In this document: piece after piece, positions 28,590 through 55,438 of the stretch
How the letters are laid out: every line of letters begins with the position of its first letter
Numbering within the stretch: the first letter of the stretch is position 1
From: Octopus vulgaris
Lineage: Eukaryota
Assembly (NCBI GenBank): GCA_951406725.2
Contig: OX597819.1
Location: forward strand, 95,542,001 to 95,606,000
Direction of reading: 5' to 3'
Length of the DNA stretch: 64,000 nt
Program-made: the position numbers and the translations under genes
The notes under the pieces: generated by a model
What the model saw: only the letters and a program-made list of their open reading frames with translations
Database searches by the model: none
What the model was told of the DNA's origin: nothing

Positions 28590-29225
28590 ACAAGGTGGTA
28601 CCCAAAAGTGGCCAGAAACGTTTTCTGTGGAACAAGCCCGTTGTAGTTCAGACTTCTGCCACTAGAAGCCACTTGATGTGACCCTCAGGCATCAATCTGC
28701 CAACCAGCAACATCAAGTGAAGTTGTACTGCCATGTAATTGTCTCTTTATTTTACTGTGCTTCTCTGCTGTTCATCAACTTTTGCAATGGCTGAAATGAA
28801 GTAATAGTGTGATTCCATAAAATTCTGTTTTCTGCTGGGAAAAATGACAGCTGAAACAGTTGTCATGCTTTGAACAACTTACAAGGACACTACCATCAGC
28901 AAAACACTAGTTTATGAGTGGTTTTCACACTTTATGAATGGCCACTTGTCATTTGAAGACCAACCTCATACAGGGCACCCATTGACCTACTAAATGAAAA
29001 TATGAAAATTCATTGATGAACATGTTGATATGAATGGTGTGCCCTGGAAGCTCCAACCAATGAATTTTTGGGTGAGGAAACGCGAATGAAAAGAGTTGCA
29101 GCAAAATTTGTTCTTCACGGAAGATCAAAAGCAGGCACGACTGAATGCAGGTGGTGAACTGAAAGAACAGTTGGAAGTTGATCCGGACCTTCTTTCGAAG
29201 GTTGTTAACGATGACAAAAGTTGGG
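28590..29225 (+). mobile_element. Mariner transposase remnant (second family)
   Basis: TA-flanked start; IKFCFLLGK, VYEWF, KRVAAKFV fragments. Confidence 0.75.
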
Positions 29226-36364: not shown

Positions 36365-37190
36365 ACATGGGATGATGGATAATCTTCCAGACTGCTGCCA
36401 TAGTGACGAAGCTAAAGCATGCAGAATGAAGCCACTTGGCACAGATTGACCATTAACTCTACTGTGCATACACAGTAAGTTTCAACATTCTAGCTCACTT
36501 CCACTGTTTGCAGTTATGCTTGAAATGAAAATATGTAGCATGTGATCGTCACATTGACCATGACTGACAATCTGCGTCAAACTTTGCCAAAATGTTGGTG
36601 ATACCTGCTCTGAAGCCTACAGAGTTTACATCATTCTCAACACAATCCAGATCTTATGCAACTGAAACCCGATTGTGTTTTTGGTCAGCTAAAAGCAGTT
36701 TTGGCATAAACTTGCCAGGCATGTGTCTCATACCCAAATCTCCAGTGATAATGTACAGAACTGAACCGTAACTAATCTACACATACTCTGATAATTCATA
36801 CACGGTGATTTGAAAATTTCTCTTTACAGCTGCTTGCATATCTGAAATGTTTTTCTCAGTTCTGCTGGTTACAGATATCCCAGAATAGTTGTCAATATCG
36901 ACATTTTTCGGGCTCATACACTTTCTGCAACTTTGCATAGGCCTCTGAGTTAGTATCTCTAAGCTTTTGGCAAAATTTGATGCAGCTTCCCTGTTCAACT
37001 TTCTGTCATGGTTAATGCAGCAACCACATGCTATACACATTCCTGTAAACAGTGAAGTGAGTTAGAATGTTAAAACTTAGTGTGCATGCATGGCAGAGTT
37101 CAAGATGAATTTTTTCCAAGCAGCTTCACTCTGCATGCTTCTTCTGCATTACTATGGTAACAGTCTGGATACTTACTGATCAGACATTGT
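36365..37190. mobile_element. Non-autonomous mariner-type element (same family as 9296-10170)
   Basis: Shared TIR gatacttactgatcagac and internal sequence. Confidence 0.75.
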
Positions 37191-37618
37191 ATGTGTGTGT
37201 ATGTATCACCTTGCCTTCACATCATGCAGTAGTTGTAAATGAGTCAGTCATACAAATAGCGTCATTTCCAATCTTCTGTAGAAACAGATGAGAGCTATGG
37301 CTGGAAGACCTGGCCTGAGAAAAATCTGCCACGAGGAATTCTGTTAGACCCATGCAAGCAAAATATAGTGAATGTTAAAATGAATGCATGATGACAGAAA
37401 TTATCTTTGAAAATAGATTTCAGTTAAATCTCTTGGATTCCAAATACTTAAAACAAAACAAAATTTTTTTTTCTTATCACTTTATTTTTAAAGTAAAGAC
37501 AAAATTGGGATGAAAATAAATACATAACAATTTGGGATAAAATTCTGTATCAAAATATATGATTTTCTGTATATCTCTTTCTTTATAATTTATTCTGAAT
37601 AAAATCAGATCAAATAAT

Positions 37619-37656
37619 GAGCTCTGTTCAACTTCCCTGGCTGAGGACAGAAACCC
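37619..37656 (-). promoter_or_regulatory. IRE-like RNA hairpin, copy at 37.6 kb
   Basis: GGGTTTCTGT-CC-TCAGC-CAGGGAA-GTTGA-ACAGAGCTC. Confidence 0.55.
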
Positions 37657-38934
37657 GTTTATAATGGCGTTTATTTATCCCAATGACCAACAGTAACTTA
37701 AATATTCTTAAAATTTTTTCAATAACCATACTGGAGATTGCAGAAACTTTCAAACCACATTAAATGAGTTGATTTAATTAAATTGTCTTATGCATACCAT
37801 TCCCCCACTATTTATTTTTCATTTTGCATTTCCTAATAGAATATAAAACCTGTATGAGGTAAATAGGTTTGTATTTATAATCAATAATATACTAAATAGA
37901 TGCTTATTTTCTCTATCAGGTTCGTTGTGTTATTCTTGCTATTTAGCACTTTATAAGCTGCTGATATTTAATCTATGTATAGAATACTTAAAGAACTCTA
38001 AACTAAGATAAAAATCTCAAGTGGAAAAATGTCCTAATAACAGATAGAATTTTTTTTAAAGGAATATTTATACAGAGATGAACTGGGTTAAATCAAATGG
38101 AGTGCCTGACAAGCAGCTATGGCTTGTAGCCCTTCATAAAAGTTTGAAGTTGTTTCTGGTGTTTGCCAAAATAGACTTAGCTCTTGTCATATATTAATCT
38201 TTGTAAGACTTCCAAAACAGAGCATAGATTTCACAGCTTACTTATTGTCACATATATGTAACAATATTCCAGTTGTATTATTCCACAAAACCACCACTGC
38301 ATAAATATTTCCAATTAGGATTTTAATGCATGATACATTATACATATCTAACACTAAATTAACTATTGTTTTTCATGTGGATGGCATCTCTAAGAAATTA
38401 ACTTCAATGATTTTTTTTAATATGATAAATCTCTCACTCACTCGTACGGTATTGTACAACTCTATAGCAATTCATCACTACTTTGGCTTGTATAGTGATG
38501 CCTAATAAAACCTAATTATCCTTGGAGTTGTCTAGTATTTGCCAAATAGACTAACATAAGCTTCTATTGAGTTGCCATCCTGATCTGTCTAGAGTTGGTT
38601 ATTCGGTGACTAAGCCACCAAGTGATGTCTTTACAATCCAGTTAGTTTATGGGTCTCTTTTTCATATAAAATGCTTTGAAAAAATAAGATTTACTTAAAA
38701 GTAAAAACTCTATAGCATCTAAATAAAAGGGCGGCATCTAAGAACATTTAAGTTTATAACAAAATAAATAAAGGTTTCAAAAATAAATATATGAAAATAA
38801 AATACATTTTCCTCACAATGTTTATATCAATCATTAAAAAACATTTCAAGGAGAAATTAAGTTGTTAATGAATGAAAACTAAATAGTGTTGGTCACTGGA
38901 TAATATGATGTTACCAAGATAACAGAAAAATTGT

Positions 38935-38965
38935 CATCTGCTCAACTCACTGGTTGACGCACATG
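38935..38965 (-). promoter_or_regulatory. IRE-like RNA hairpin, copy at 38.9 kb
   Basis: CATGTGC-G-TCAAC-CAGTGA-GTTGA-GCAGATG; extra basal stem CCAGGATAA/TTATCTTGG (38914-38992). Confidence 0.6.
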
Positions 38966-39616
38966 CCATAATAAAACAGGAATTTATCCTGGAAAATAAT
39001 TTTAAAAGTGAAATTTTAAAAAAATTAACATGTAAAAATTTTAGCAATTAGAAATGAAATTCAAACACATTGCATCAAATTTGCTAAAATTGTTTTGCAT
39101 CTAAAAGACACGAAAAAAACCAAAACACAAAGAATCTATATAAAATTACACAACGAAAGAATGTGTACATTCCTAAGTTATCTCAACGGAAAAGAAAAAT
39201 TTCAAAATCAAAATGAAAACGGTGTAATTAGTCAAACTTCAAAAGTCAATGAACATTTTATAAACACTTTTACCAAGAGGTAAGCAGGAAAAATAAGTTC
39301 AACACAAAAAATTCACATAAAATTAATGAAAAATCTTTAAACAGTAATTTTAACTACAAGCATCAGATTTACATAAGCTTAATAACAAATGTCAGAGTAG
39401 ATTTCTATATTGTAAGTATATAATATCTCAAGGTTTTTGTTTTATAAGAAATTTTTAAATTACCATTCCCTATTAGGACTAGATGTTTTTAAAATGTGAT
39501 AACTAATTATTATTTCACATATCTTGAATTACACTAGAATTCAACTAATTTACTTTTCTGGCATTTTTATTGAAGATCAGTATTTTACAGCTTTATATAT
39601 ATATATTCAAATATGA

Positions 39617-40790
39617 ATTACAAGTAGCTTGAAGTATATAAACAAAGTCAAACACACATATAAGAGGTGTGTGCGTTGTTAGTTTGTTGGGCAGCTGCAT
39701 TTTTTTTTTTAGGCATAAGAGAATATAATCTCAATGCCCTTGGTGTAAAAACATCTGAAAGCAGGTCATAGCCAAGTGAGACAACTGTCACCGGATCCCT
39801 TTTTCCGCAGCAACAGACATTGATGTTTTGTCATTGTTCTGTATTGAGCAAGACGTCTGCTGTGAGCTGTCTAACTGGCATGTCCCAACATGTCATGTCA
39901 GAAAAAAAAATTAAAATATAAACTAGAAGCAGCTGAATGTATATAAACAGTCAAACAGATATACACAAGGTGTGGGTGTTGTTAGTTTGTCGGGCAGCTG
40001 TGTTCTTTTTAGTGTAAGGAATATAATCTCAACACCCTTGGCATAAAAGCACCTGAAAGCAGGCCATAGCCAAGTGAAACATCTCACATCAGATCCTTTT
40101 TTTCTTTTTCGCAGTGACAGACAGCAAAGTTTCATCATTGTTGTGACTTGTTAAAGCTGTGTACCCATCAAGGTCTGCTGTGAGCTGTCTAACCAGCTAT
40201 GACAACATTTAGCATATAATCATAGCCAGTTAGCTCACAGCAGACCTCTTGCTCAGTACATGGCATTGACAAATCACAATGGCAAAACATCGATGCCTTT
40301 CACCGTGAAAAAAACCCAGATTTGATGAGAGTTGTCTTACTTAGCTTTCAGGTGTTTTTACAAGAAGGGCATTGAGATTACAAATATTCTTACACTTAAA
40401 AAAAAAAAAGCCGCCCAACAAACTAACATACACACCTTGTGTGTGTTCAATTTTATGTACCTCAAGCTACTTCTAATTCCTGTTCTATGTTTGTCCATGG
40501 CATGACATGTTGGGATATGCCAGCAGATGGTTCTTAAACCATTTAGCATATAGTCATAGCCAGTTAGACAGCTCACTGCAGATCTCTTGCTTGGTACATG
40601 GCATTAACAAGTCACAATAATGATGAAACATCAATGTTTGTCGCTGTGAAAAAAGTTGATGCAAGTTGTCTCACTTGGCTATGACCTGCTATCAGGTGTT
40701 TTAACACCAAGGGCATTGAGATTATATGCAGCCACCTGGCAAACCAACAACACACACTCTGTGTATGTGTGTTTGACATATATATATGAG
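39617..40790. mobile_element. Nested fold-back elements (A> B> <C <D)
   Basis: Four diverged ~270-290-bp copies: 39617-39900 and 39922-40205 forward; 40208-40477 and 40490-40790 inverted. Confidence 0.85.
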
Positions 40791-41716
40791 AGATAATACA
40801 CATACCTATATACATAGATATCCCTATCTATGAATAACTATACTTGTATCTATTTATAAATAAACATGTTTCACATTCTCGAAGGTTCTAAATTCTTTTG
40901 ATGTCAACAACAAACAATTCTCATTGCTAAGTTTCTAAAATGGATCAAGAAACTGTCAATGGTTGAATTCCAGTCATGTTTACAGATGTGGGATCAAGTC
41001 CCACAGAGAGCCTTTGACATTTTGTTTTCATCCAATTCTGTTTTTTTAACCCAATATTTACACACTATTATTTATAGCTTTATTTGCTTCGAGATTCATC
41101 ATTTCCAAAAATTATACATGCATTTATTTATGAATAAATATATAGATCAGTGGATGAATATAAAAAAAAAAAAGATTTCTAATTGAGGTATAAACCAGCA
41201 ATTTTGAGAGCAGGAATAGTGAATACCATCAACGGCAGAATATGACTGGTACTATATTTTATTAACTCTGAAAGAGTTAAGTTGACATCAGTGGAATTTG
41301 AACTCAGAATGTATAGCATATACTGCAAAGCACTTTTCTGACATTAAGCATTCTCCCAATCCGCCACTAATAATAATGAAAGTAGACTAAACAAAACATA
41401 AGAAAATGGAGTAAGGTTTGAAGCAAAAACTATGCTATCAAATGAACAATGATAAACCTACAAGCAGACAGGTCAAACACACAGATTTTACGAAATATTA
41501 GCTCATGAGCCACTTCTATATATTTTGGTAAATATTATTTTAGCAGATGTTAAAAAAATTTTTTTTTAATACATTTCTGTATCATATTAGTAAACATTTC
41601 AATATTGCAGGTTATTGAAAATAACACTGATAATAATATCACATTAGATTTAGAAATATATACGAAAAAATAAAATTCCTTGGGGAAAGCCAGCATATAA
41701 AAAATAGACAGCTAGT

Positions 41717-41753
41717 GAGTTCTGCTCAACATCACTGGCTGAGGACAGAACCC
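41717..41753 (-). promoter_or_regulatory. IRE-like RNA hairpin, copy at 41.7 kb
   Basis: GGGTTCTGT-CC-TCAGC-CAGTGAT-GTTGA-GCAGAACTC. Confidence 0.6.
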
Positions 41754-43137
41754 CCTTCCCTAGATGGCAACTGGTCACTTCTATCAATAGAGATCTTATG
41801 AAGAAATAACATCAATAATGAATAATAGCAGCAGCAGTAGTGCATAAGTAACAATACAAGATTTTATGTTGCAAGGATATTTAGAAAACTGAAAAGAGCC
41901 ACACAGTGGATAAACAGATAGTGACAAACTATTATCTGAAGATATTTAGAAGTTCAATGTGTTACAAGCCAAGTGAAAACCCACTTCCCCCAAACCATCT
42001 CGTTACATTTACCAAAAGGTAGATCAGATCTGAAAAACAGGAGATGACCTTTTAAATTAGAGTAGAAACATTCATGTAGATAAGTGAATCTATGATGCTG
42101 TAATTACAATAAATTTGGGACATAATCCTAAAGGTGAGTTGAAAATGAGAATTGAAGAGAGAACTGAGCACCCATAAGAGTGGATCAAGTAGTTGAAACC
42201 ACCATTATAAAAGAACCAATAATAAGTAGCTTTTATATACAATATTCATTATTTAGGGAATCTAACTAGGTGAATTTGAATCTCAGTGAAAGAAATACAA
42301 ATGACAATGTTTTACAAACAGATTAGTTACCTACATTCTCTTGCAAAGTTTATTATTCTTCACTTTAAAATAAGCCACATACAGCTTTAATTTAATTTTT
42401 TTTATCAAGCAAGAATTATCTTTCAGGCCTTCATAGGTTTTTTTCTTTTTTATTCTTAGTTATAATGTATAATTAAGTTACATAGTTATAATTAAATGAC
42501 AAGCAGAGTCACATGATTCTTTTAGTCTCAATAAAAAGTTTAAAGCTACTATTATGTCTCTAAATGAATACCCATAAATTTGACATTACTTACAGTAATA
42601 TTGTGATGGATGAATATTGTGTGTGTATATTACATATATATATATAATAATAGTGTGTGTGTGCACGCGCACAACATTCATAACTGAAATAACCAGCATT
42701 TTTAATGAGAGGAGACTAAATTAGACAAATTATTAAGAAAAAGCTATCTTATTTTTCAGAACTGATCAAATCTGTAGACATCGTCTAAAGAAAAATGCTG
42801 AAGTCTTGCTAGTTCAGTAAATCTAACTGTAACACAATATTGAAAACAGTTGAGGAACTGAATAATTAGCAATATTTTTTTCCCTTCTTCTTTTATTCAT
42901 CACATCATTAAAGATTAGGTCTTTGAATTTGATTGTGCTTTATTGCTAATAATATCTGTTAATTCTTTCCTTTCATTATAGTTATCTAGGATTCATTAAC
43001 ATATTAATGATCTGCTTGATTTACAGTGGGAATTTGAGATAAATTTCACTTCACTCTTAAACTAAATTTATAACTGTAAATGGAATTAATCAGTGTCCAC
43101 TGAGATATTCATTTGGTGATGGTAGTCTGTACTCAAT

Positions 43138-43945
43138 AGGTGCAGGAGTGGCTGTGTGGTAAGTAGCTTACTAACCAACCACATGGTTCCGGGTTCAGTC
43201 CCACTGCGTGGCATCTTGGGCAAGTGTCTTCTGCTATAGCCCCGGGCCGACCAATACCTTGTGAATGGATTTGGTAGACGGAAACTGAAAGAAGCTTGTC
43301 GTATATATGTATGTATGTATATCATCATCATCATCGTTTAGCGTCCGCTTTCCATGCTAGCATGGGTTGGACGATTCAACTGGGGTCTGGGAAGCCAGAA
43401 GGCTGCACCAGGCCCAGTTTGATCTGGCAATGTTTCTACGGCTGGATGCCCTTCCTAACGCCAACCACTCCATGAGTGTAGTGGGTGCTTTTTACGTGCC
43501 ACCGGCACAGGTGCCAGACAAGTCTGGCAAATGGCCACGATCGGATGGTGCTTTTTATGTGCCACCGGCACGGGAGCCAGGCGAGGCTGGCAACGGCCAC
43601 GAACGGATGGTGCTTTTTACGTGCCACCGGCACGAGGCCAGTCAAAGTGGCGCTGGCAACGGCCACATTCGGATGATGCTCTTACATGCCACCGGCACTG
43701 GTAACTCAGCTGCAATTTCCATTCATATATATATATGTATGTGTGTGTGTGTGTTTGTCCTAGCATTGCTTGACAACTGATGCTGGTGCGTTTACGTTCC
43801 CGTCACTTAGCGGTTCGGCAAAGGAGACCGATAGAATAAGTACTGGGCTTACAAAGAATAAGCCCCAGGGTCGATTTGCTCGACTAAAGGCGGTGCTCCA
43901 GCATGGCCGCAGTCAAATGACTGAACCAAGTAAAAGAGAGTACTC
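43138..43945 (+). mobile_element. tRNA-derived SINE interrupted by an RTE 3' fragment (43322-43720, -)
   Basis: A box TGGCTGTGTGG, B box GGTTCAGTCC; the SINE 3' half resumes at ~43750. Confidence 0.88.
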
Positions 43946-44934
43946 AATAAACATTACATAGGATGGACTGTTATGCATCCAACCATCACCTAATAAATAT
44001 CAACATGTAGTATAGCTGCAACTAAAACCAAGAGAAAAAAATTTGGATTTTTGAATTCAAGTAACTAATTTTTTTTGAATATTCTATTTATAATATAACC
44101 AAACACTAAGTTGCCGACTATATTTATGTACTTTTCTTTTCTTCTAATAGAATACGATATGTAATAATTTGAATGAGGCAAATAAAATATTTGTGGCTTA
44201 CAAATAAAAACATAGCTAATTGTGTTCACAAGAGACCAAATCCTCTCTAATCTCCATTATTTATATTGTCCAAAACTTGCTGTCAGCCGACCACACTAAA
44301 GATATTTCCATTGCTTGTATAAATTTAAAGAAGGGCAGGGATATCTACAATCTCAGTTGAACAAAATCTTCCAACCCCTTATATTACATACATAGGTCCT
44401 TTTGTATTAGTATTTATTATGTTAAACATTCTCCTGTAACACTTTTCCCTTAGCAAAAACAAATGGTCTACTTTAAAAACTTTTAAAATTAGTTGCTGAT
44501 TGTTAGTTAAAGAAAAAAATGTATTGAAGACTTACTAAAGCTGCTGCTATTATAGGTATTATTATTTTAATGTTATTTTAGGCTTATTTTTCTTATATTT
44601 CAAATTGTGATTAATATAGTTAAATTACTTCCAGCAATCCTGGAAGTAATAAAACAAATTTTTTGCTTCAGAAAACATCAGATTTATATTTTTTGTAAGT
44701 TTTTTTTTTGTGTAATAGGAATTAATTGAGATTCTACAATTTTTTTAATGAGATTCTACTGATCTAAAGTATAAATTTTTCAGTAAAAAAAAAAAAAAAA
44801 TCCGTAATAACAAATAAACAAAAACAAGTTAATCTTCTCAGTTATTGTTCTCAAAATTATCCTCTAAACCTATCTGAAAATATTATTTATAGCAGAGAAA
44901 ATAAGAGTATTAATGCAATAGAATTCTTGATGTT

Positions 44935-44967
44935 TCCTGTTCAACAAAACACTGGTTGACACAAGGA
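44935..44967 (-). promoter_or_regulatory. IRE-like RNA hairpin, copy at 44.9 kb
   Basis: TCCTTGT-G-TCAAC-CAGTGTTTT-GTTGA-ACAGGA (enlarged loop). Confidence 0.5.
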
Positions 44968-45246
44968 TAGCCATTAGTATATAAGGGGGCATCTAATCCC
45001 TCTTTAATCAAAAGGGGGAAAAAATGATAAAATAAAAATAATATATAAAAAATAATACATTGTTATCAAAAAAAAAAAAACAATAAATATATGAAAATGT
45101 AATGAAATATGAATGTGTGATGTTAATGTTTTTGTGCCTGTTTGAATCCAAAAAAGAAAAAATCCAACATAACATGCACAGAAATTTTTTTCATAATGTG
45201 TCTGTATAAAAAAGATTATTACAATGATATATTATAAAGTATCACA

Positions 45247-45283
45247 GATGCTGCTCAGCTCACTGGCTGTGGTCAGCTGTATC
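45247..45283 (-). promoter_or_regulatory. IRE-like RNA hairpin, copy at 45.3 kb
   Basis: GATACAGCTGAC-C-ACAGC-CAGTGA-GCTGA-GCAGCATC with one A.A mismatch; basal stem AGTATC/GATACT. Confidence 0.55.
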
Positions 45284-48200
45284 AAGAGATACTGACTAAA
45301 CATCTGAACAGAAAAGGAGAAATCTTTAAACAACCCAGTAACGTGAAAATTGAGCTAGCTAATGCTTTATTCAGCATAGTAGCAAGACCATGTTTTTATT
45401 GCAAGTTTCTGACAACACATGTAGAGACAGTGTTCATTAGGAATCCACAGCTGTACCAACACAAAACTAATTTAGATTTGTGCTATCAATTTATATTCAC
45501 TGAACATATTTTATTACTCCTAGAGAAGGTTAAAAAAAAAAAAAAAGGAACCACGTACCAACGTCCAATACTACCATTTCACTTTCATCATTGACAATAA
45601 TAATTATTATTTCTTTGACACAAACTACAAATTTAGCCACATAACCCCTTTCTCAAAAACAAGTCTTCAGATTTTGTTTTGAATACCAGGTTTTTATTAT
45701 TATTTTTTATTTTTAAAGAAAGATAAAAGTTCATTAATAAAAACTAATCTCAATCCAATGCTTTTAATTACATGGATATAGATTAAAATTTTGTAACACA
45801 GCTGTATTCGATTCCAAAATAATTCAAGTAATGTGTATTCAAAAATGAAAGAAATTAGTTTATTTATTTTTTTTTTTTTGTAGATTATAAATCTGATATT
45901 CAGAACACTAAAATGCTGAAGTGATTTGTTTTTTATTTATTAAAGGATTACTGAAAAAGTTGAAAAGCTGAGGATCCATACTTCAATAAGTGGCCAAATT
46001 TATAGGGAGGTAGTATGGTTATTCAATTGCTGGTGTGATTTTACTGACAAGGCTCACTAAAATTTAACAGTATTTTAATCAACATGAGATCTAAATACAA
46101 GGTATTTTGCCCAACTTGTTACTGCCAAAATATCAAAGATTTCTCCAATCCTGCACAGATGAACACATTCAGTGATAAATTTTTACACACCAACATTTAT
46201 TTTATTATTTCTTAATTGTATAAAAGAAGCATGAATAACAATCATCCAATGTATTTAACTCACTTGTATGCGAGTTATGTGTATGTATAAATTAAACTGT
46301 CATAACTGCATATAATAGACATAAATTAATACACAAACCTGTGTATGCATGATATATACATGCTAATACACTCTGTATGTGATCTTATTTTATATACAAT
46401 CCCGAATTAGATGACAGACAGACAAATGAATATGTAACATAATTAGTCATGAAAATATTTTAGAAAAGTAGAACACTGACGTAAAGAAAAAAACTATAAT
46501 TTTAAAATAAATTTAATAATAGGATATCTAAGTCAAATAAAGCAAACTTTATATTTTTAATATTTACCATAAGTAAGTATAAACATTGCTGTATGTTTTC
46601 TTTTGGAACTAGAATGCTATTAATTAGGAAAGGTAATTAAATATTAGCACTTTAGAGCTTCAAAGAAAAGTCTCTAAATGTAACTGAAATAATCAGAAGC
46701 TCTTACTGTAAAGTAAGCAAAGATTATAGGCTTATATATAGAAATAATAAAAATGGGGTCATGCAACCATCAGGAAATTATCTAAGTTCAATATGCAGAA
46801 AACAAGTAGATAGAAATTCGTTAATGCATCTAGTGTAAGCTATGGACATACAAAAGGTATAGTGAGATCACAGATAGGCTAACAGAAAGTTCATTTCATT
46901 TGTGCAAGATATACAGGCACAGTAAGCACTAAGAGCACAAGTAAAATTTATTATACCTGAACATTTCCCTAGAAGCAGTTGAAAGCTTTTGTTACTAAGG
47001 TGACATAATTTGCAGTGGCTTTTAGAGTATGCACTCTAAAAGCATAGTAACCATAGTAAGAACAGGTAGCAATGCTAGTCCACATGAAAGATAGAATACA
47101 AATAGTAATAGTTGACAAATAAACAAAAGCAACATAGGGTTGAGAAGGTCCTTAATCTGACCAAGGATATGAACTTCTTTAACGTTTATTTTACAATAGA
47201 ATGCACCCAGTACACACTGAAGTTGGTGCTAAGGGCACCCAGTCAAAGAAACCATGCCAAAAGTGGAATGTACAAATAAGAATTTGGTCTTCCAACCTGT
47301 CAAAGAGGACAATAATTGAATAAGTACCGACTCGGTAACTCAGACTATAACAACTTGTCAAAATTATGGTAATATGGAAAACAGATGTAAAAGAATGATT
47401 TTGACAACAACGATGCATCTAAAATTTTTCACTAAATTTAGTGATCTTACCTCTTGATGCTGTTTGACAACTGATATTTTGTGAATATTTATGTCATAGG
47501 CACAAGATCTCGAATTGAAAAGATACAAAGAAAATGAGACTGACATATATGCTTTTTTCTAGAGCAGTACAAATGACACAAAAATGATTACAATTTAAAA
47601 TCAAAACTCAATTTGAGAAGTCAGCTTAGTGGTTAGGGACTAACTGCTACTGTATATGGCACTCTGAAAATTAGAAGCAATGTGATAAATAACTGAACAA
47701 AGAATCAAATGTTAGAATTCTATTATCCTGAATATATTGTTTTACAACCACTAGACCTACACACTTATTCCAGTTTTATTAGCTAAATTCATACATATTA
47801 CATCTGTTCATCTGCACTTTAACATCTTACTATTTTTAATTTAATTACTTTTTTTTTCATCATCAAAAGATTAAATTATCTGAATAAAACTAGTTAAAAT
47901 AAAGCATGAAGTAAAATATATATATATATATATATATATAAATCCAAATATTTTAGGTTTCAAGATAGAGAAACTGAATAAGATTTGCCTGTCTGTCTAT
48001 CTGTCTGAGGAAATGTATAATTTTTTTCTTACACCGGGGATGAATTTTTTCAAGTTTATCACAAATTGAATAATTAAATGCTTCAGTTGCATATAATGGA
48101 CATAAACAAAGAAATAATAAAAATAACATGCAGGCAATGCTACCAATAAATAGTTTTTAAATAAATAAAATCAAACTAATTTGGGTAAATAAATTTTGAG

Positions 48201-48589
48201 AACTTTTTGAGGGTGTTCTTAAAGTTTAAAAAAATGATAAATATCAAACTAGAAATGAAAGATCAAGTGAAGCTCTTTCACTTCCTAGGTATATTAGTCT
48301 AAAACAAGTCAAAATGAAGTAGGGTTTATCAAAAGATACAGTTGGGCTAAACTGTCCACAATCTTTTGCTAAAAGTATTCCTTTCTCATGAAAAGTATAC
48401 TTTTAGTTAGAAAAGAGTAGTTATATTTATTTCTGGTCAAGATTCTTTACTGAAGCTGTAACTTGAAAAGTTTTAAGTGCTGCCAAATTATAAACAATAG
48501 AAACTGTTATAGATTTCATAGTGCAAAAACTTTTTAGATGTGTTTCAGAAGTTGTCATTAAATAATATATTTAAAAAAAATATTTTAAC

Positions 48590-50110
48590 TGTTACGACTG
48601 AAAGAAGATAAAAGTGTCCATGATTTTAGCAGTCCTTCTGACAGCAGCGAGACCGATGCCATTAATGTCATCCTGGAACCATTGCACTTTTGAGAAGGAC
48701 ATGAGCAAAGATAGGAAGGAAGGAGTAGGCAGACTTAATGTATGTAACTTGGGCAGTTGGACACAACATGAGTGATGAAAGGAGAGACTAGTGCCTTAGA
48801 GTAGGTGGCATAAGGTCAATCAGATCTGAGGAACAGAGACCATAATAGTAGCTAAAAAGAAGAGAAGCAACAACATGCCTATGGGCCAGAGGCTAGAATG
48901 TGTCTATGAGAGGTGGTTTTTCTCTGGGTGTAGTGTAAGATGTCTGTGTGTATAGGAGTAGCACCATCCTAGATGTGGGAGGAATACTCCATTGTGGCTC
49001 CCTTGAGCTTTGAAGACTATCACCAGGAATTACAACCGTGTTTCGTGGTCTGCTACCACAACCGCTTCATAGGATCCAGTTAGCTCAAGACATCATCAGG
49101 AGGAACCACGTCCGGTTTCGGCCCCTATTCCTCTACCGTTTTGACGTGGCGGCCCCCCCCCCCTTTCGGAGGTGTCTTCAGCTCTGGTGTTGGGTGCATG
49201 TCTTCTTTCTTCTGTTCCCTGGCCTCTTTGATGTATCGTCAGCGAGTGTCAGCCGGTGACTGACTGACTTGTCAAACTTTTCCCTTTAAATACCTGCCGC
49301 TAGGCTCCAGCAGGCAGCCCCAGCAAGTTGTCATGTGACACTGTCTCACCTTAACTGACAAGTGAAGGCGCGTAGTTTTAGCCAGCGCATTCTCTAAATG
49401 ACCGTCACCTGTCAGTCAGCGAAGTTGATTCAGTGTCAGCTTGTCTCACCTAATGATGTTATTTCCTGCTGGCATGTTATGATTTTCAAGCCATTTTCGA
49501 TCTTCCCGCTTCAGCCATATATAGAAGTTGGCTTTTTCGACCGCCTCCTGTATTCTCCTTACTAAAGACTGGCCTTGAAGAGAAGGCCAGTTATTAGTAA
49601 TTGGTTCTAACTATTCATTGTTAGTGAGGCCTAACATTTAAAGTATCAGAACTCTAGTTGACAGCTACTCATGTTTCCTTCCTTTTGGGGGGTGGGGGGT
49701 TATATGATTAGTGCTTGTACCCTTTTTTTGCTGCTGATAACGACAAAATTGACATGGCCCCACTGGGGGATGCTGTCAAGGAATCAGTACAGCTTTGCTG
49801 TGTGGCATCTAAGATTCATGTAGGTAATGCACAGTTGAGAAACATTAGGGAGGAACAAAGGGTAGTACCTAAGAGTGGGAATTATTGGATGTGATAGCAA
49901 ACAATGGTAAGTCATTATTGCTGAAATCTAAGCAAGAGAAGTGAGTGATAGAGATGGGTAGTCTATGATTGCACAAACACTACCTTTTTGGATAGAAATT
50001 TAAACAGAGTATAACCTGGATAGGGGAGATAGATTAAATACAGGTTGAGAAATTGGTATCACTCATTTCTTGTAAGCAACAGGTAAGGCATTGCATCTGG
50101 GTTGGATTTG
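48590..50110 (-). mobile_element. Degenerate Jockey/CR1-group LINE interrupted by a GC-rich unclassified insert (~49030-49700)
   Basis: PLAHRHVVASL..YYYGLCSSDL C-terminal motif at ~48810-48900; the continuation above 49740 is less clear. Confidence 0.6.
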
Positions 50111-50378
50111 AGAAAAGGAAACAATGGAGCAGAGGGCTTAGTTCTATTTTTTCTTTTTTTTGCATCCTAGAGAATTATAAAAGAGTGACAGTGCATGGAT
50201 AGGTCTCAGTAACCTGCTGTCAGAAGTTTGATTGAAACACCTGAAAAAGAAAGGTACATCATATGATGTGCCCACTACTGTCATCAAAAAGACAGATCTT
50301 TTATGCCAAACAGGACAAGTTCAGAAAACACATCCTTGAGAAATGTAAAAAAGAAAGTCATAAGTAATGGCTAAGATT

Positions 50379-51559
50379 CTACTCACATGCTCCTGTGTAG
50401 GTTGGACTTTTAAATTGTTCAAATATCCCATGAGTAATAAAATTATTTAAAATGCTTAGCGGACAGAGATTTGAGAATGAAGCTGCAGTATTCTTACAAG
50501 AGAGCACTTTATTTGTTAAGTCTTCACCATTAAAAAGGATACGGAAAAATTTTGAGCCTTCACTATTAGCATAAACTTCAAAAATGAAATGACTGACTGA
50601 CACAGGCCTTTCAGTAATTGTGAGCCCCAGAGTTCGAAGCAAATACAATAGGAAAGAAAGCTTGGAGGAATATGTATGGAAAAATATTTTACTATTGTGG
50701 ATACTTTCCATAATTCCCTGCAAAGCTGGAAATGTAGACAACTTTGAAATTTCGGTAAACAGGGGGTTTACAATGAGATTTTTGAAGTAGCTGTCAGTCA
50801 TTCTGACAGTTTCTGTTAACCCCTTGGGTGTAATTCTTATGCAAGGTTTATCCTTATGACAAACAGGAGAGATTTTATTGCACAAGTAAGATAAAGTAGA
50901 CTGAAGAATTTCCAATGAAGAAGATTTAATAATATCTGTAGAATTAAAAAGGCTAACTAAACGTTTGGTGGATGGATGAGCTTCTTTAAAGATAAACTGA
51001 CCAGAATTTATAGCATTTTCAACTTGTGAAGAATGCATATTTAATTTAGGACAATTAAGATGTTTATTCATGGACCTAGAAGCAAAATCTGGAAGAGATT
51101 TACCAACATGTATACGACTAAATTGTTTCTGTGTAAGAAAGCCAACTGCAAAAGCAAGAGAATTTTGGTACTGAAGTTTTTCTGGAATGGTCTGTATGGT
51201 AAACAACTTTTCAGGAGATGTATTCTTCAGCCTATGACTATAAACTTCTCTCAAAAATTCACCATGCTCAATTTGTTGAAGGATTCCAAAAGGTGTAAGG
51301 TCTCCTAAAAAGCAAACAGGTTTTCTAGATGTTGGTGGGAATATTTTTAAACTACTGGGTCTTTTTTGAAGCTTCTTGTATAAAGAAATACTCTCTTCAA
51401 ATAACCTTACTTTAGGATTATTTGATAAGGGATTTGTTATCATACAGGTAATCATTGGTGATCTGAGTGCAGGTAATTCTTCTGGTAGAGTTTGTCCAGA
51501 ACTGAAGAAAGTATGAACTTGAACAAGTTTGTAGCCAGAAAAAAGCCTGTTGAAATTAC
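50379..51559 (-). CDS. PXYLP1-like (2-phosphoxylose phosphatase / histidine acid phosphatase fold), coding exon 3; catalytic motifs degenerate
   Basis: Acceptor tcaaatatag| in phase 1; GYKLVQVHTFF, GDLTPFGILQQIEHGEFLREVY, FFRILFNGEDLT, LCPL, terminal YTGAC. Confidence 0.88.
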
Positions 51560-53221
51560 CTATATTTGAATGAAAAATAAATCAAACACTGAAAAGATAA
51601 ATATGAATAGCATAGTTTTGTTCAATTTCACAATAAATTAAAATTTATATAAATTTTGAAAAACAATTTACTGTTTTTATATATATATATATATATATAT
51701 AAAATGAAAAAACATTTTTAATTCCATATTGAAAATTATTCTAGAATAGTAACAACTAATAATTTTTAATGTGAATTTCATATGAAATTAATTGAATTAA
51801 TAATTATAGTTCTAAACAAACACAGACCTAACAACCTACTTAAGGAACAGCTGTATAGGTACAGGCATAGCCAAGTGGTAAGAAGTTGCTTTCTAACCAC
51901 ATGGTTCTGGGTTTAGTTACACTGCATGGGACTTTGGACAAGTGTCTTCCAGTATGAGCCCTGGCTAAAGAATTAGGAGTGGATTTGGGGGGGGGGGGAC
52001 ACATATATAGAAACAAATGAATAATAATATATGAATGTACAGGCACTAATCCCTTACAGCCGTTTCTACCATAAGGCAACAAAAACCTCCAAGTTTTCTT
52101 CACATCAGTGATATACAGGGATGGACAGACATTGGACAGGGCTTGGATAATGGGTGTGCCCCTAAGCTTCTTCAGAGGGTCCAAATGTTAGGGAACTAAC
52201 ATGTGTGAAAGTTAGTTAAAAAAATAAAGTAGAGTAAAATAAAATAAAATAATGTGATAAACATAGTAAGGAAAGGTAAGATAAGGACTTCAATTAAGGT
52301 GTTAATATAATCCATGGTATTCCATCCTGTGGTAAGTACATGAATAAAGTCACATTTAGGAAGAATTTCTACGGTTGCAGTTTACATTGTGTTTCCATTA
52401 TACTGGGGGGAAATAGCTTGTTATGTGGTGGGTTTAATGGTTTGGTCAATGTTACAGGGGTTAGAGGTTGGATGTTAACCGCTATTTAGTAGAAATAGCA
52501 TTATAAAAGGAGTTGGCAGAAATAACTTAGATTAAACCCGTTAGGGGAAGTTTAGGAGTATATTAATGGGTGAAGCCTAAATGTGATGCTAAAATTAGTT
52601 CTTGACCAAACCCTAATCCCCAAACCCCTGTATGTAGTGGGGTGGGATCAGAGTCAATCCTATAATCTAATTGCTCAAGACACACATACAGAGGAACCCT
52701 CACATACAGTGCAGGTATATTGTGAAGTTAAGACCTTTGCTTCCTAACTTTCAGGTTCAGACCTGTTGTGTGGCACCTTGAGCAAGTGTCTTGTGTCATA
52801 GACTTTCTACTGGCCAAGCTTTGAATGAATTTGGTAAATAAAATTCAAAGCCCATCATAATATATGTTTGTGGTTCCCTTCCTTGACAGTGTGTGATTGT
52901 TATAAATGAATATCATTCATTTCCAATATTCTGCAAAGACATGTCTTGCTATGGGGAAATATTACTTCAATGAAAAACAAGTAGGGGCTGGTGACAGGAA
53001 GGGTATCAGCCATAGAAAACCTGCCTCACAAAAATCTATCCAACTCATACAATAATGGAATCAATGATGACGATGATACTTACATATACATAAATACATG
53101 TACATGTTACCCTAGTAATTATATCAAACCATGAAATTCCAACCATTATGCAAATGAATAGTGCCATACATAGTTTGACTTCATTTTAATAAACAGAAAT
53201 TTTAGAGAAAATAAAACTTGC

Positions 53222-53428
53222 CTTTGTATTTTTGTGATGATGCTGCACGAAACCCTTCACATGCTTTAATCACTCTTGGCTGCTGAAGGAGCGTTCTATA
53301 TGGTGTTTGTTTCTCAGATGATGACAAACTTCTCTTTTGACAGTGTTTTACTTGAAAATTTTGGGACTGATCTATAGGCAGTTTTTTACTTGAAGATTTT
53401 AAAAATAATTCATAACTAATAAAAAGTT
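53222..53428 (-). CDS. PXYLP1-like, coding exon 2 (stem region)
   Basis: Acceptor tatttcag|, GC donor AAG|gcaagt, phase 1 at both ends, open frame (ORF 53202-53468). Confidence 0.75.
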
Positions 53429-53979
53429 CTGAAATATAATTAACATAAGGTTCCATATGTGAAAACAATTAAGTGAAAATTTATATTTTGTATGAATAGT
53501 GAAAAACTAACTTTATTGCCTCTTCACTCTCCCATCTGTCACAAACAAAAATGCACAAACATGCGTCTCACTTTGAGAAAGTTATTGATTTCTGTTATGT
53601 AGAAAAACACTTTATAATTGACTTGTTTTGGAACATATAATTACTTATTTTGTATATCATGAACCTAACAAAGATTTTACTTGGAGACTTTTGGTTTAAA
53701 TGGCTTGGTAGCCCAATTCAGATGCTTTCATTGTGTAAATGATACAAAAGCTAAAAAGTTATTTATATCGTGTAATTTTTACAGTGAAAAACCTCAAAAT
53801 CAAGTGCCATGCTATTATTGATATCCACACACAGTTAAACTTACATGGTAACTGTGCTTTCAATGTCAATGTCTAGAAAATACCCATTCATTCAACATGT
53901 AAATAGTTTATAAAATCCCATCCAAACATACAAGTCTCTACAAATAAACAAAGAGAATATAAATGGAAGCTAAGATTAA

Positions 53980-55057
53980 CCCTTTCGTTACTATATTTCT
54001 GACCAAAATACACCCCTTATGTGTTTCAATTAATTTCTAACATAATCATAAATTTAGTCTGGTTTCATTAAACAACTATAACTTTTTTTTTTATCAATAT
54101 ATTAATCTGATTTTTGGAAGATAATTTAATGAAATGTTCTCAACTAATTCTATACTATAATTTTTGTCACAAAGTGACTCTAATTGCAGGTAGATACAGG
54201 TAAATTCAACAAAATATAAAATTATTAATATTTTGTTCAAACATCGCTATAGAAAATGGGTTATTAGCTAATATTCAATTGGGTATACAACAAAATTTTA
54301 CGATAGAATTTGTTATTCTGGGTAACTTTCTGATACCCATAATAATATTTATGGCAAAATAGTCTTAATTTCATTTAAGGTTGTGGGAAACCACTAACTA
54401 TCCTTTCTTTCGCTTTGTTTAAATTTAGCGTAATGGTTCGTTTCCGCCGTAATGATTTCAAATAGGCTCATTCGAAAAAGTAAAAAGAAATAGTCTAAGG
54501 CTTTACTCCCCTGGGAAAGTCTGTGGCTTGGTCCAGTTTCTTCAGAAAAACCACCGAAAGAAACAGTTTTTAAATTTTCACTCCATTCAGGTGCCAATTC
54601 ATTTTCTTTATCGCTGTCGGAGCTCTCGGATTCACTGTTTTCACTTTCGGAAAATGAAACATCAGATTCATTATCAAATACCACGTGCTTTTTTTTTTTC
54701 AGTCATAGAGTTAGATTTATCAAGGTCTTCAGTGGAAAATCCTTCAAATTCTGACTCGCTGCTTGATATAATGAAATTCATATCCATTTTTTGTCAGAAT
54801 TACAAATTTTGAAAACACAATAGGAACAAATTTCGGAAAAAAATTCCCCAAAATTCCCGGAATTAAAATTACACTTTGATTGTTGTACAAAACTGTAGAT
54901 GAACTGTTTACAAAGTATAATACGTATTTTCACGAATGTGCTAAAGAGATTTGCTCTGATATTCTCATTTAAATATGAATAGGTAAATACGGGCGGGTTT
55001 GGGCGGTTTGGTCACATTAACCAAAATTTTTTTCGGGCGGCTTTGGTAACGAAAGGG
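53980..55057 (-). mobile_element. Non-autonomous piggyBac element
   Basis: TTAA TSDs (53976-79, 55058-61), TIR CCCTTTCGTTAC, transposase N-terminal remnant (ITAETNHYA) at 54394-54684. Confidence 0.93.
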
Positions 55058-55213
55058 TTAAAAGTACATCATAAATACTGTTAGGTTAGGGCTGAAACTA
55101 TTCATTTTAATTCCTAAAATCTTTCAGTCCATGTGTTTCCTCACCATTTTCATAAACAAGATATTTTAAATTAGAAAAAATTTACAAAAGAACTACCACA
55201 AAAATATACTTAC

Positions 55214-55265
55214 GCATCAGTAATATACAAACAAGGATGTAAAGTCTATGTACCATAGAAAACAT
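55214..55265 (-). CDS. PXYLP1-like, coding exon 1 (signal anchor)
   Basis: MFSMVHRLYILVCILLM with donor C|gtaagt in phase 1. The three exons sum to 1440 nt (479 aa), about the length of vertebrate PXYLP1. Confidence 0.75.
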
Positions 55266-55438
55266 GCTTAAACATTTCCAAAAGAATGGTATACACAGCA
55301 GAATACATCTATTCTGAAATTTATAGAAAAAAAAAAATGTTCAATTAAATTATTCCTAATAACATTGAAAACTGTCAAAAAATTTTTTTTTAAAGTTAAC
55401 TTTAGAAGTCGAAATGTCACAAACATATTTTAACTAAC

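Follow-up and report, generated by a model that had tools for sequence, protein, structure and literature searches.

A 64,000-nucleotide (nt) stretch of the Octopus vulgaris genome (assembly GCA_951406725.2, contig OX597819.1, positions 95,542,001-95,606,000; hereafter the window, in whose numbering positions are given) contains five related hairpins, H1 to H5, on the minus strand downstream of a gene resembling 2-phosphoxylose phosphatase 1 (PXYLP1). As judged from its sequence, this array is a real, old, locally duplicated and constrained family that is clustered nowhere else in this genome. We tentatively propose, with confidence a little below even, that the five hairpins are a relaxed array of iron-responsive elements (IREs) in a long 3' tail, which would be read by octopus IRP1.

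All five minus-strand hairpins described in a sequence-only reading of the same DNA were present. H1 (45247..45283, loop start 45265) has a CC bulge, an upper helix of four base pairs (bp) plus an A-A mismatch, and the loop CAGUGA. H2 (44935..44967, loop start 44954) has a G bulge, five bp and a 9-nt loop, CAGUGUUUU. H3 (41717..41753, loop start 41737) has a CC bulge, five bp, a 9-bp lower stem and the 7-nt loop CAGUGAU. H4 (38935..38965, loop start 38952) combines a G bulge and five bp with the loop CAGUGA, and H5 (37619..37656, loop start 37639) a CC bulge and five bp with the 7-nt loop CAGGGAA. The array spans 7.7 kb, with 0.3-3.2 kb between copies. When the five copies were aligned, they shared the order, 5' to 3', of UG-N, a CC or G bulge, WCARC, CAG(U/G)G followed by 1-4 nt, GYUGA and RCAG, with 14 invariant positions located mostly in the stems. 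The departures from canonical IREs pointed out earlier, namely loops of 7 and 9 nt (H2, H3, H5), G bulges (H2, H4) and a CAGGG loop (H5), were seen again. The upper stem described as common to all copies has five bp in H2-H5 but not in H1 with its mismatch, and the bulges, described as C, CC or G, were CC (H1, H3, H5) or G (H2, H4), a single C being found only in an alternative register.

A pattern search of the whole genome (2.8 Gb) gave eight matches, five of which were H1-H5, while the reversed-pattern control gave none. Both genome-wide matches to the G-bulge form of the pattern were located in this array. Because the pattern had been derived from the copies themselves and was post hoc, a leave-one-out test was run over the window and 200 kb of flanks. 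The profile built from four copies recovered the fifth in every case, and none of the non-copy positions among 526,740 scored as high. Mean identity was 86% in the 22-nt cores and only 26% and 34% in the 40-nt flanks on the two sides, which indicates constraint on the core. The flanks, previously called unrelated, were so at this level, except that H3 and H5 were 84% identical over 45 nt, as the only pair that could be aligned beyond the core; of the 40 flank comparisons made, two gave a match, each of them weak (z about 2).

The hairpins could also be remnants of old local duplications that are neutral or decaying and have no function today. Each copy deviates from the IRE consensus and three of the five are ordinary in stability, as this explanation would have it, but the contrast between the 86% core and chance-level flanks, together with pairing in 24 of the 25 upper-stem cells, makes it very improbable. 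An origin from a transposon or a short interspersed nuclear element (SINE) was rejected, as the dispersed copies were missing: with eight pattern matches genome-wide and five of them here, the array is not part of a repeat family, a possibility that the sequence-only reading had raised against itself. When two DNA stretches that include four of the hairpins were searched against the genome, neither a paralogous hairpin-bearing segment nor a retrocopy turned up, and scans of metagenomes found no relatives. The pattern matches at our loci L001 and L007 did not fold into the hairpin and were taken as chance, as was a similarly folding site on contig C10 (L008:1498-1531, minus strand), which scored 19.8 bits, where the training copies reached 32.7-42.9. 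A sixth candidate in the window, at 28794, had a 10-nt loop inside transposon-like sequence and was rejected.

Some shorter similarities were noticed around the copies. A stretch 200 nt after H4 is similar to the 30 nt that precede H2, and may be left over from the old duplication, its hairpin having been lost. The 7-mer AGATGCC is repeated on the minus strand at 44994, 38739, 38389 and 49810. The 8-mer directly 3' of H1 (45240-45247, minus strand) is what we take to be a perfect K-box, or miR-2-family site.

Stability z-scores were +0.30 for H1, -0.08 for H2, -1.95 for H3, -2.51 for H4 and -1.18 for H5, compared with -1.29 for an octopus ferritin IRE; in the folding model, the single hairpins are not unusually stable. 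Preference for folding on the minus strand was clear in H3 and H5 and modest in H2, while H1 and H4 folded equally well or better on the plus strand. This qualifies the argument that G-U pairs fix the minus orientation. Across the copies, an upper-stem pair runs through AU, AU, GU, GU and GC, and the first lower-stem pair through UA, UA, UG and CG, with AG in H1. This is the pattern of a minus-strand RNA helix, and the lower stems do differ in sequence and still pair, as had been noted, apart from the AG of H1.

We then compared the copies with the five strict IRE features given in PMC8466369 (this and the other PMC-numbered papers served as sources in part). As in IREs, a 5' bulge lies five positions below a loop in which the C14-G18 cross-loop pair and the AG are fixed. 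The C14-G18 pair and A15-G16 are present in all five copies, U17 in four (AGU, with AGG in H5), and the five-bp upper helix also in four, H1 being the exception. Position 8 is C in three copies, where it is inside the CC bulge, and G in two, so that no copy has the strict single C8. A single N19 was found in H1 and H4, in both as A, as in the octopus ferritin IREs, and not as the preferred U or C; the other copies have 2, 2 and 4 nt at this place. The copies therefore vary at N19, which makes no contact with the protein (PMC8466369), and at position 8, where they use only C or G, both known from natural IREs, and keep the cross-loop pair and A15-G16.

The SIREs rules were re-coded from PMC2896125 and the motif table of PMC12230718, leaving the quality score aside, and both ferritin controls passed them. 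The rules accepted H1, as motif 1 with one mismatch, and H4, as a perfect motif 18, and these were the only matches on the minus strand of 37.2-50.4 kb. The background was 62 matches in 528,000 strand-bases (0.117 per kb), two of which were perfect matches to motif 1 or 18. SIREs motif 18 has G8 with CAGUGA, motif 8 has CAGGGN and motif 22 has two added loop bases (PMC12230718), so the deviations in the array, G8, CAGGG and extra bases after N19, each correspond to some SIREs motif. The Rfam models RF00037 and RF02253 did not match the five hairpins. This result was uninformative, because they also missed a canonical octopus ferritin IRE used as control; the genome-wide RF00037 search gave one sub-threshold match, located elsewhere. 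The copies may work like IREs despite their non-canonical form.

At the level of sequence, an IRE/IRP1 system exists in this genome. In two octopus ferritin genes, the 5' IRE has C8 and a CAGUGA hexaloop, one of the two with a stem mismatch, and one of these IREs is nearly equal to an ark clam IRE that was shown to bind IRP1 (PMC8947174). No IRE-like hairpin was found near the start codon at the other two of the four cytosolic-type ferritin loci scanned (L039 near 7200, plus strand; L030/L047), one of which is intronless. The exons of a cytosolic aconitase gene match IRP1 structures, and the loop-contact residues R269, S371 and K379 are retained (the numbering of the Protein Data Bank chain is offset by one).

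The host gene lies upstream of the array on the minus strand. Its product, P0001 (479 aa), is named Octopus vulgaris 2-phosphoxylose phosphatase 1 by the sources. With boundaries read from the sequence, the first coding exon is at 55214..55313 (ATG at 55265) and coding exon 2 at 53222..53428, whose donor is of the GC type (53220-53221); the last coding exon of P0001 is at 50379..51559, all on the minus strand. RHGxRxP and HD are the catalytic motifs of histidine phosphatases. Both were absent from the last coding exon of the host, where SSGQTLP and YSSKL stand in their place. A paralogue with intact motifs is located 22 Mb away (C6:118.2 Mb) and is 22% identical to the host; no hairpins were found within 20 kb downstream of it. 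The best ten non-cephalopod matches of a profile search also lacked RHG, and the six of them that could be named were all from bivalves or gastropods. Among cephalopods, O. bimaculoides (XP_052824878) and O. sinensis (XP_036359722) have an orthologue of the host. Therefore the host belongs to a mollusc clade of pseudo-phosphatases, in which an SPGQ-like motif replaces RHG, and the PXYLP1-like protein is likely catalytically inactive.

An annotated isoform, P0006 (CAI9724620.1, 159 aa), connects the host to H1. It uses a donor at 51410 within the last coding exon and joins it to an exon beginning at 45303, the coding part of which (45232..45303, minus strand) contains H1. The alternative intron of 6.1 kb (45304..51410, minus strand) excises the region coding for the catalytic fold, and most of the open reading frame (ORF) is lost in P0006. 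The acceptor at 45304 ranked first of the 966 AG sites in 37000-55400 by a rough matrix. Downstream of 45303, no donor scored above 1 for 1.3 kb except the H1 loop, which fits a terminal exon. In the species annotation, PASA updates based on transcript data supplied the untranslated regions (UTRs) and the alternative forms (PMC10700109), and P0006 presumably arose by such a transcript-based update. A further good donor at 50386 (minus strand; rank 8 of 968) overlaps the final codons of the ORF. If it were used with the 45304 acceptor, the product would be a nearly full-length protein with H1 in the 3' UTR.

The same region raises the question whether the hairpins control splicing or determine which exon comes last, either because the loop conceals a GTGAG that resembles a 5' splice site or because they mark alternative terminal exons. 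H1 begins 20 nt past the strongest acceptor of the region, and two loops received donor scores, ranking 24 (H1) and 14 (H4) of 968, but H2 and H3 have a weak form of the donor-like word and H5 has none. Acceptors were enriched before H3-H5 in one of four window sizes only (p=0.03), and donors after the hairpins were not enriched, which also led us to reject a cassette-exon model. We consider control of splicing quite improbable. A role of each hairpin as the conserved part of a hosted small non-coding RNA, similar to a small nucleolar RNA or a short-hairpin microRNA and carried by a host RNA made through the ORF-skipping splice, is also improbable. Hosted small RNAs typically look like paralogous short elements placed kilobases apart with unrelated flanks. 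The array has this appearance, and the isoform loses most of the ORF. On the other hand, there was no relevant Rfam match, the hairpins, at 31-38 nt, are short compared with Dicer precursors, the flanks have no shared box motifs, insertions and deletions occur in the middle of the block, and H1 is exonic.

Beyond H1, the IRE reading would presumably require H2-H5 to be in the same mature RNA, either in a single terminal exon (45303 to about 37480) or in a long unspliced 3' UTR. On the minus strand, T exceeded A in every repeat-masked bin between 38.4 kb and the end of the window (z 1.1-4.4); the skew was close to zero at 35.2-38.4 kb and turned negative at 25.6-35.2 kb, which fits a minus-strand unit ending near 37 kb. 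Repeat-poor DNA stops near 37.2 kb and the sequence is repeat-rich from about 37206. Two AATAAA candidates for the 3' end lie just after H5 (37481..37594, minus strand); their weight is small, as 25 AATAAA occur in 36.8-50.4 kb. Together, the skew, the repeat boundary and AATAAA hint at a 3' end just after H5. Between H2 and H3 there is a high-copy SINE-like insertion (43134..43938), and between H3 and H4 a fold-back element (39605..40727) built from direct and inverted units of about 250 nt, with arms up to 95% complementary. The fold-back element would form long double-stranded RNA in the same transcript and, if transcribed, would likely be an ADAR substrate. The sequence words of the hairpins had no match in the readable supplements of PMC9699675. 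Of 24 sequencing runs considered, 20 contained at least half of the sampled words of 44000-51600, but none is on record as RNA and 14 of them are RNA by guess only, so these runs do not count as evidence here.

A number of observations weigh against the IRE reading. No copy has all five strict features together, and the re-coded SIREs rules reject three of the five (H2, H3 and H5), whose loop lengths they do not accept; therefore the copies cannot be filed as IREs. Since the octopus ferritin IREs keep C8 and the hexaloop, selection for IRP binding can preserve the canonical form in this genome. G8 is listed for brachiopods, annelids and arthropods, and not for molluscs, in the part of PMC8466369 used here, which also cautions that weak binding or a lack of regulation holds for most IRE-like sequences. 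Covariation of the upper stem among the five sequences was not significant (296 of 500 shuffles reached the observed values). In a context of 150-300 nt, H1, and at one window size H5, lost the fold, with a pair probability of about 0.2. H1 sits in an annotated exon, at a place where the short isoform is coding. A single UTR of the kind found in TFRC would require a tail of 7.8-13 kb, with copies 0.3-3.2 kb apart and the SINE-like and fold-back elements between them, while median 3' UTRs of octopus are 350-380 nt (PMC9699675) and the median UTR of the annotation is 1,255 bp (PMC10700109). The literature gave no iron link for the PXYLP1-like host, as the sequence-only reading had also stated. 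The earlier assignment to IREs was partly supported, by the IRE-like geometry, the minus-strand RNA, the absence of a repeat family, the place of H1 in an annotated exon and the IRE/IRP1 system of this genome, but canonical form was not established, as none of the copies passes the strict features and only two pass the SIREs rules.

Several of these points would also fit if the hairpins were cis-elements of the same transcript for a different RNA-binding protein, an option that the sequence-only reading had given too, with a role in localisation, decay or translation control, or if they formed a multivalent scaffold, the likeness to IREs then coming from a generally stable pseudo-triloop. Such pseudo-triloops occur in viral RNAs too (PMC8466369). 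The 14 invariant positions, being mostly in the stem, could reflect recognition by another protein; two-base bulges in three of the five copies, loops of 7-9 nt in three of the five and a host without an iron link point in the same direction. The bulge position, the restriction of position 8 to C or G, the fixed C14-G18 pair and the free variation past G18, however, all fit the rules of IREs. We regard another protein as possible, though rather unlikely.

If the IRE reading is correct, apo-IRP1 would, at low iron, bind several weak elements in the long-tailed transcripts of the host and alter the stability or use of these transcripts. Isoform choice would decide which RNAs carry the hairpins, and the effects of the weak sites may accumulate even if none of them is optimal by itself. 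The reading supposes that IRP1 would bind the five hairpins, and the outcome, by analogy with TFRC, would be stabilisation rather than destabilisation or sequestration of IRP1. The claim of a TFRC-like array for stability control, as first put forward, was not established: the host is not an iron-uptake protein, the tail would be 7.8-13 kb long, and stability control is pure analogy. In a stronger version, which we consider clearly unlikely, the array would be an invertebrate multi-IRE 3' array independent of TFRC, on a transcript whose annotated isoform removes its own coding region by splicing, with an iron-regulated pseudoenzyme mRNA doubling as a five-site decoy for IRP1, and with an IRP1 that accepts G8 and expanded loops beside canonical IREs in a single animal.

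The next gene upstream of the host, at about 40 kb on the same strand, is hnRNP L (L023:6030-7937 and L024:3662-9907, minus strand). Inspection of the ORF and exon lists by eye recognised no further minus-strand coding gene between the array and hnRNP L. On the plus strand, convergent with the host, there are exons (L010:861-977, window about 300-440, L014:1217-1630) that resemble glutathione S-transferase kappa, a label that further analysis did not confirm, and a TPX2 domain. A downstream iron gene with the hairpins as its 5' IREs was rejected as well, as none was recognised by eye in 1-37 kb or in the next 100 kb listed, where short exons could escape.

No report of the octopus array, or of any IRE in PXYLP1/ACPL2, was found in the literature outside subscription papers. 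TFRC IREs are reportedly confined to vertebrates, as Piccinelli and Samuelsson are said to have concluded in 2007. Among the ten verified IRE-bearing genes in PMC8466369, TFRC alone is given with several IREs, in the part of that paper used here. A chiton genome paper contains SIREs predictions in molluscs and, in the part used, describes no array (PMC7850002); invertebrate IREs in the literature covered are either 5' elements that occur singly or SIREs predictions that lack validation. The annotated splice into the H1-bearing exon of a PXYLP1 paralogue without catalytic motifs is new. If the IRE reading is true, the five-copy 3' array of octopus would be an independent origin of the TFRC-type design, and iron sensing would be linked to a pseudo-phosphatase of molluscs, a protein related to the glycosaminoglycan linker pathway. 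The copies form a natural allelic series (C8 or G8, N19 of 1-4 nt, AGU or AGG), which could address how invertebrate IRP1 accepts G8, an open question according to PMC8466369. If the reader is a protein other than IRP1, the array would represent an undescribed hairpin motif.

Among known systems, the closest in layout is the vertebrate TFRC 3' UTR array (IREs A-E), where several IRE-shaped hairpins with C14-G18 and a five-bp upper helix likewise lie 3' of one coding sequence. The TFRC IREs are canonical (C8, hexaloop), closely spaced and located in an iron-uptake mRNA. In contrast, the octopus array spans 7.7 kb, has no fully canonical copy and belongs to a pseudo-phosphatase; the octopus gene with a TFR_dimer domain is located on another contig (C18). 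The 5' IREs of molluscan ferritins (ark clam, PMC8947174; octopus) have the same CAGUGA loop as H1 and H4 and would be read by the same IRP1, but they are single, canonical elements in the 5' UTR that block translation, and their stem sequence is different. Compared with IRE variants from in vitro selection (SELEX) and with the G8 variants of arthropods and annelids, H4 is exactly motif 18, the H5 loop begins as motif 8, and the additions after N19 are as in motif 22, whereas the loop lengths of H2, H3 and H5 are outside the rules and molluscs are missing from the G8 list of PMC8466369, as far as the part used here extends.

DMT1 and CDC14A have isoforms with and without an IRE through alternative splicing. 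As in these genes and in the ferritin isoforms of chiton (PMC7850002), isoform choice in octopus sets the inclusion of the element. Unlike in any of them, the octopus splice also strips most of the coding sequence. The 3' UTR of MAT2A carries a hairpin array bound by METTL16. As is proposed for octopus, dispersed paralogous hairpins lie there in a long 3' tail with the first beside a regulated splice site; the loop sequence and the reader are different.

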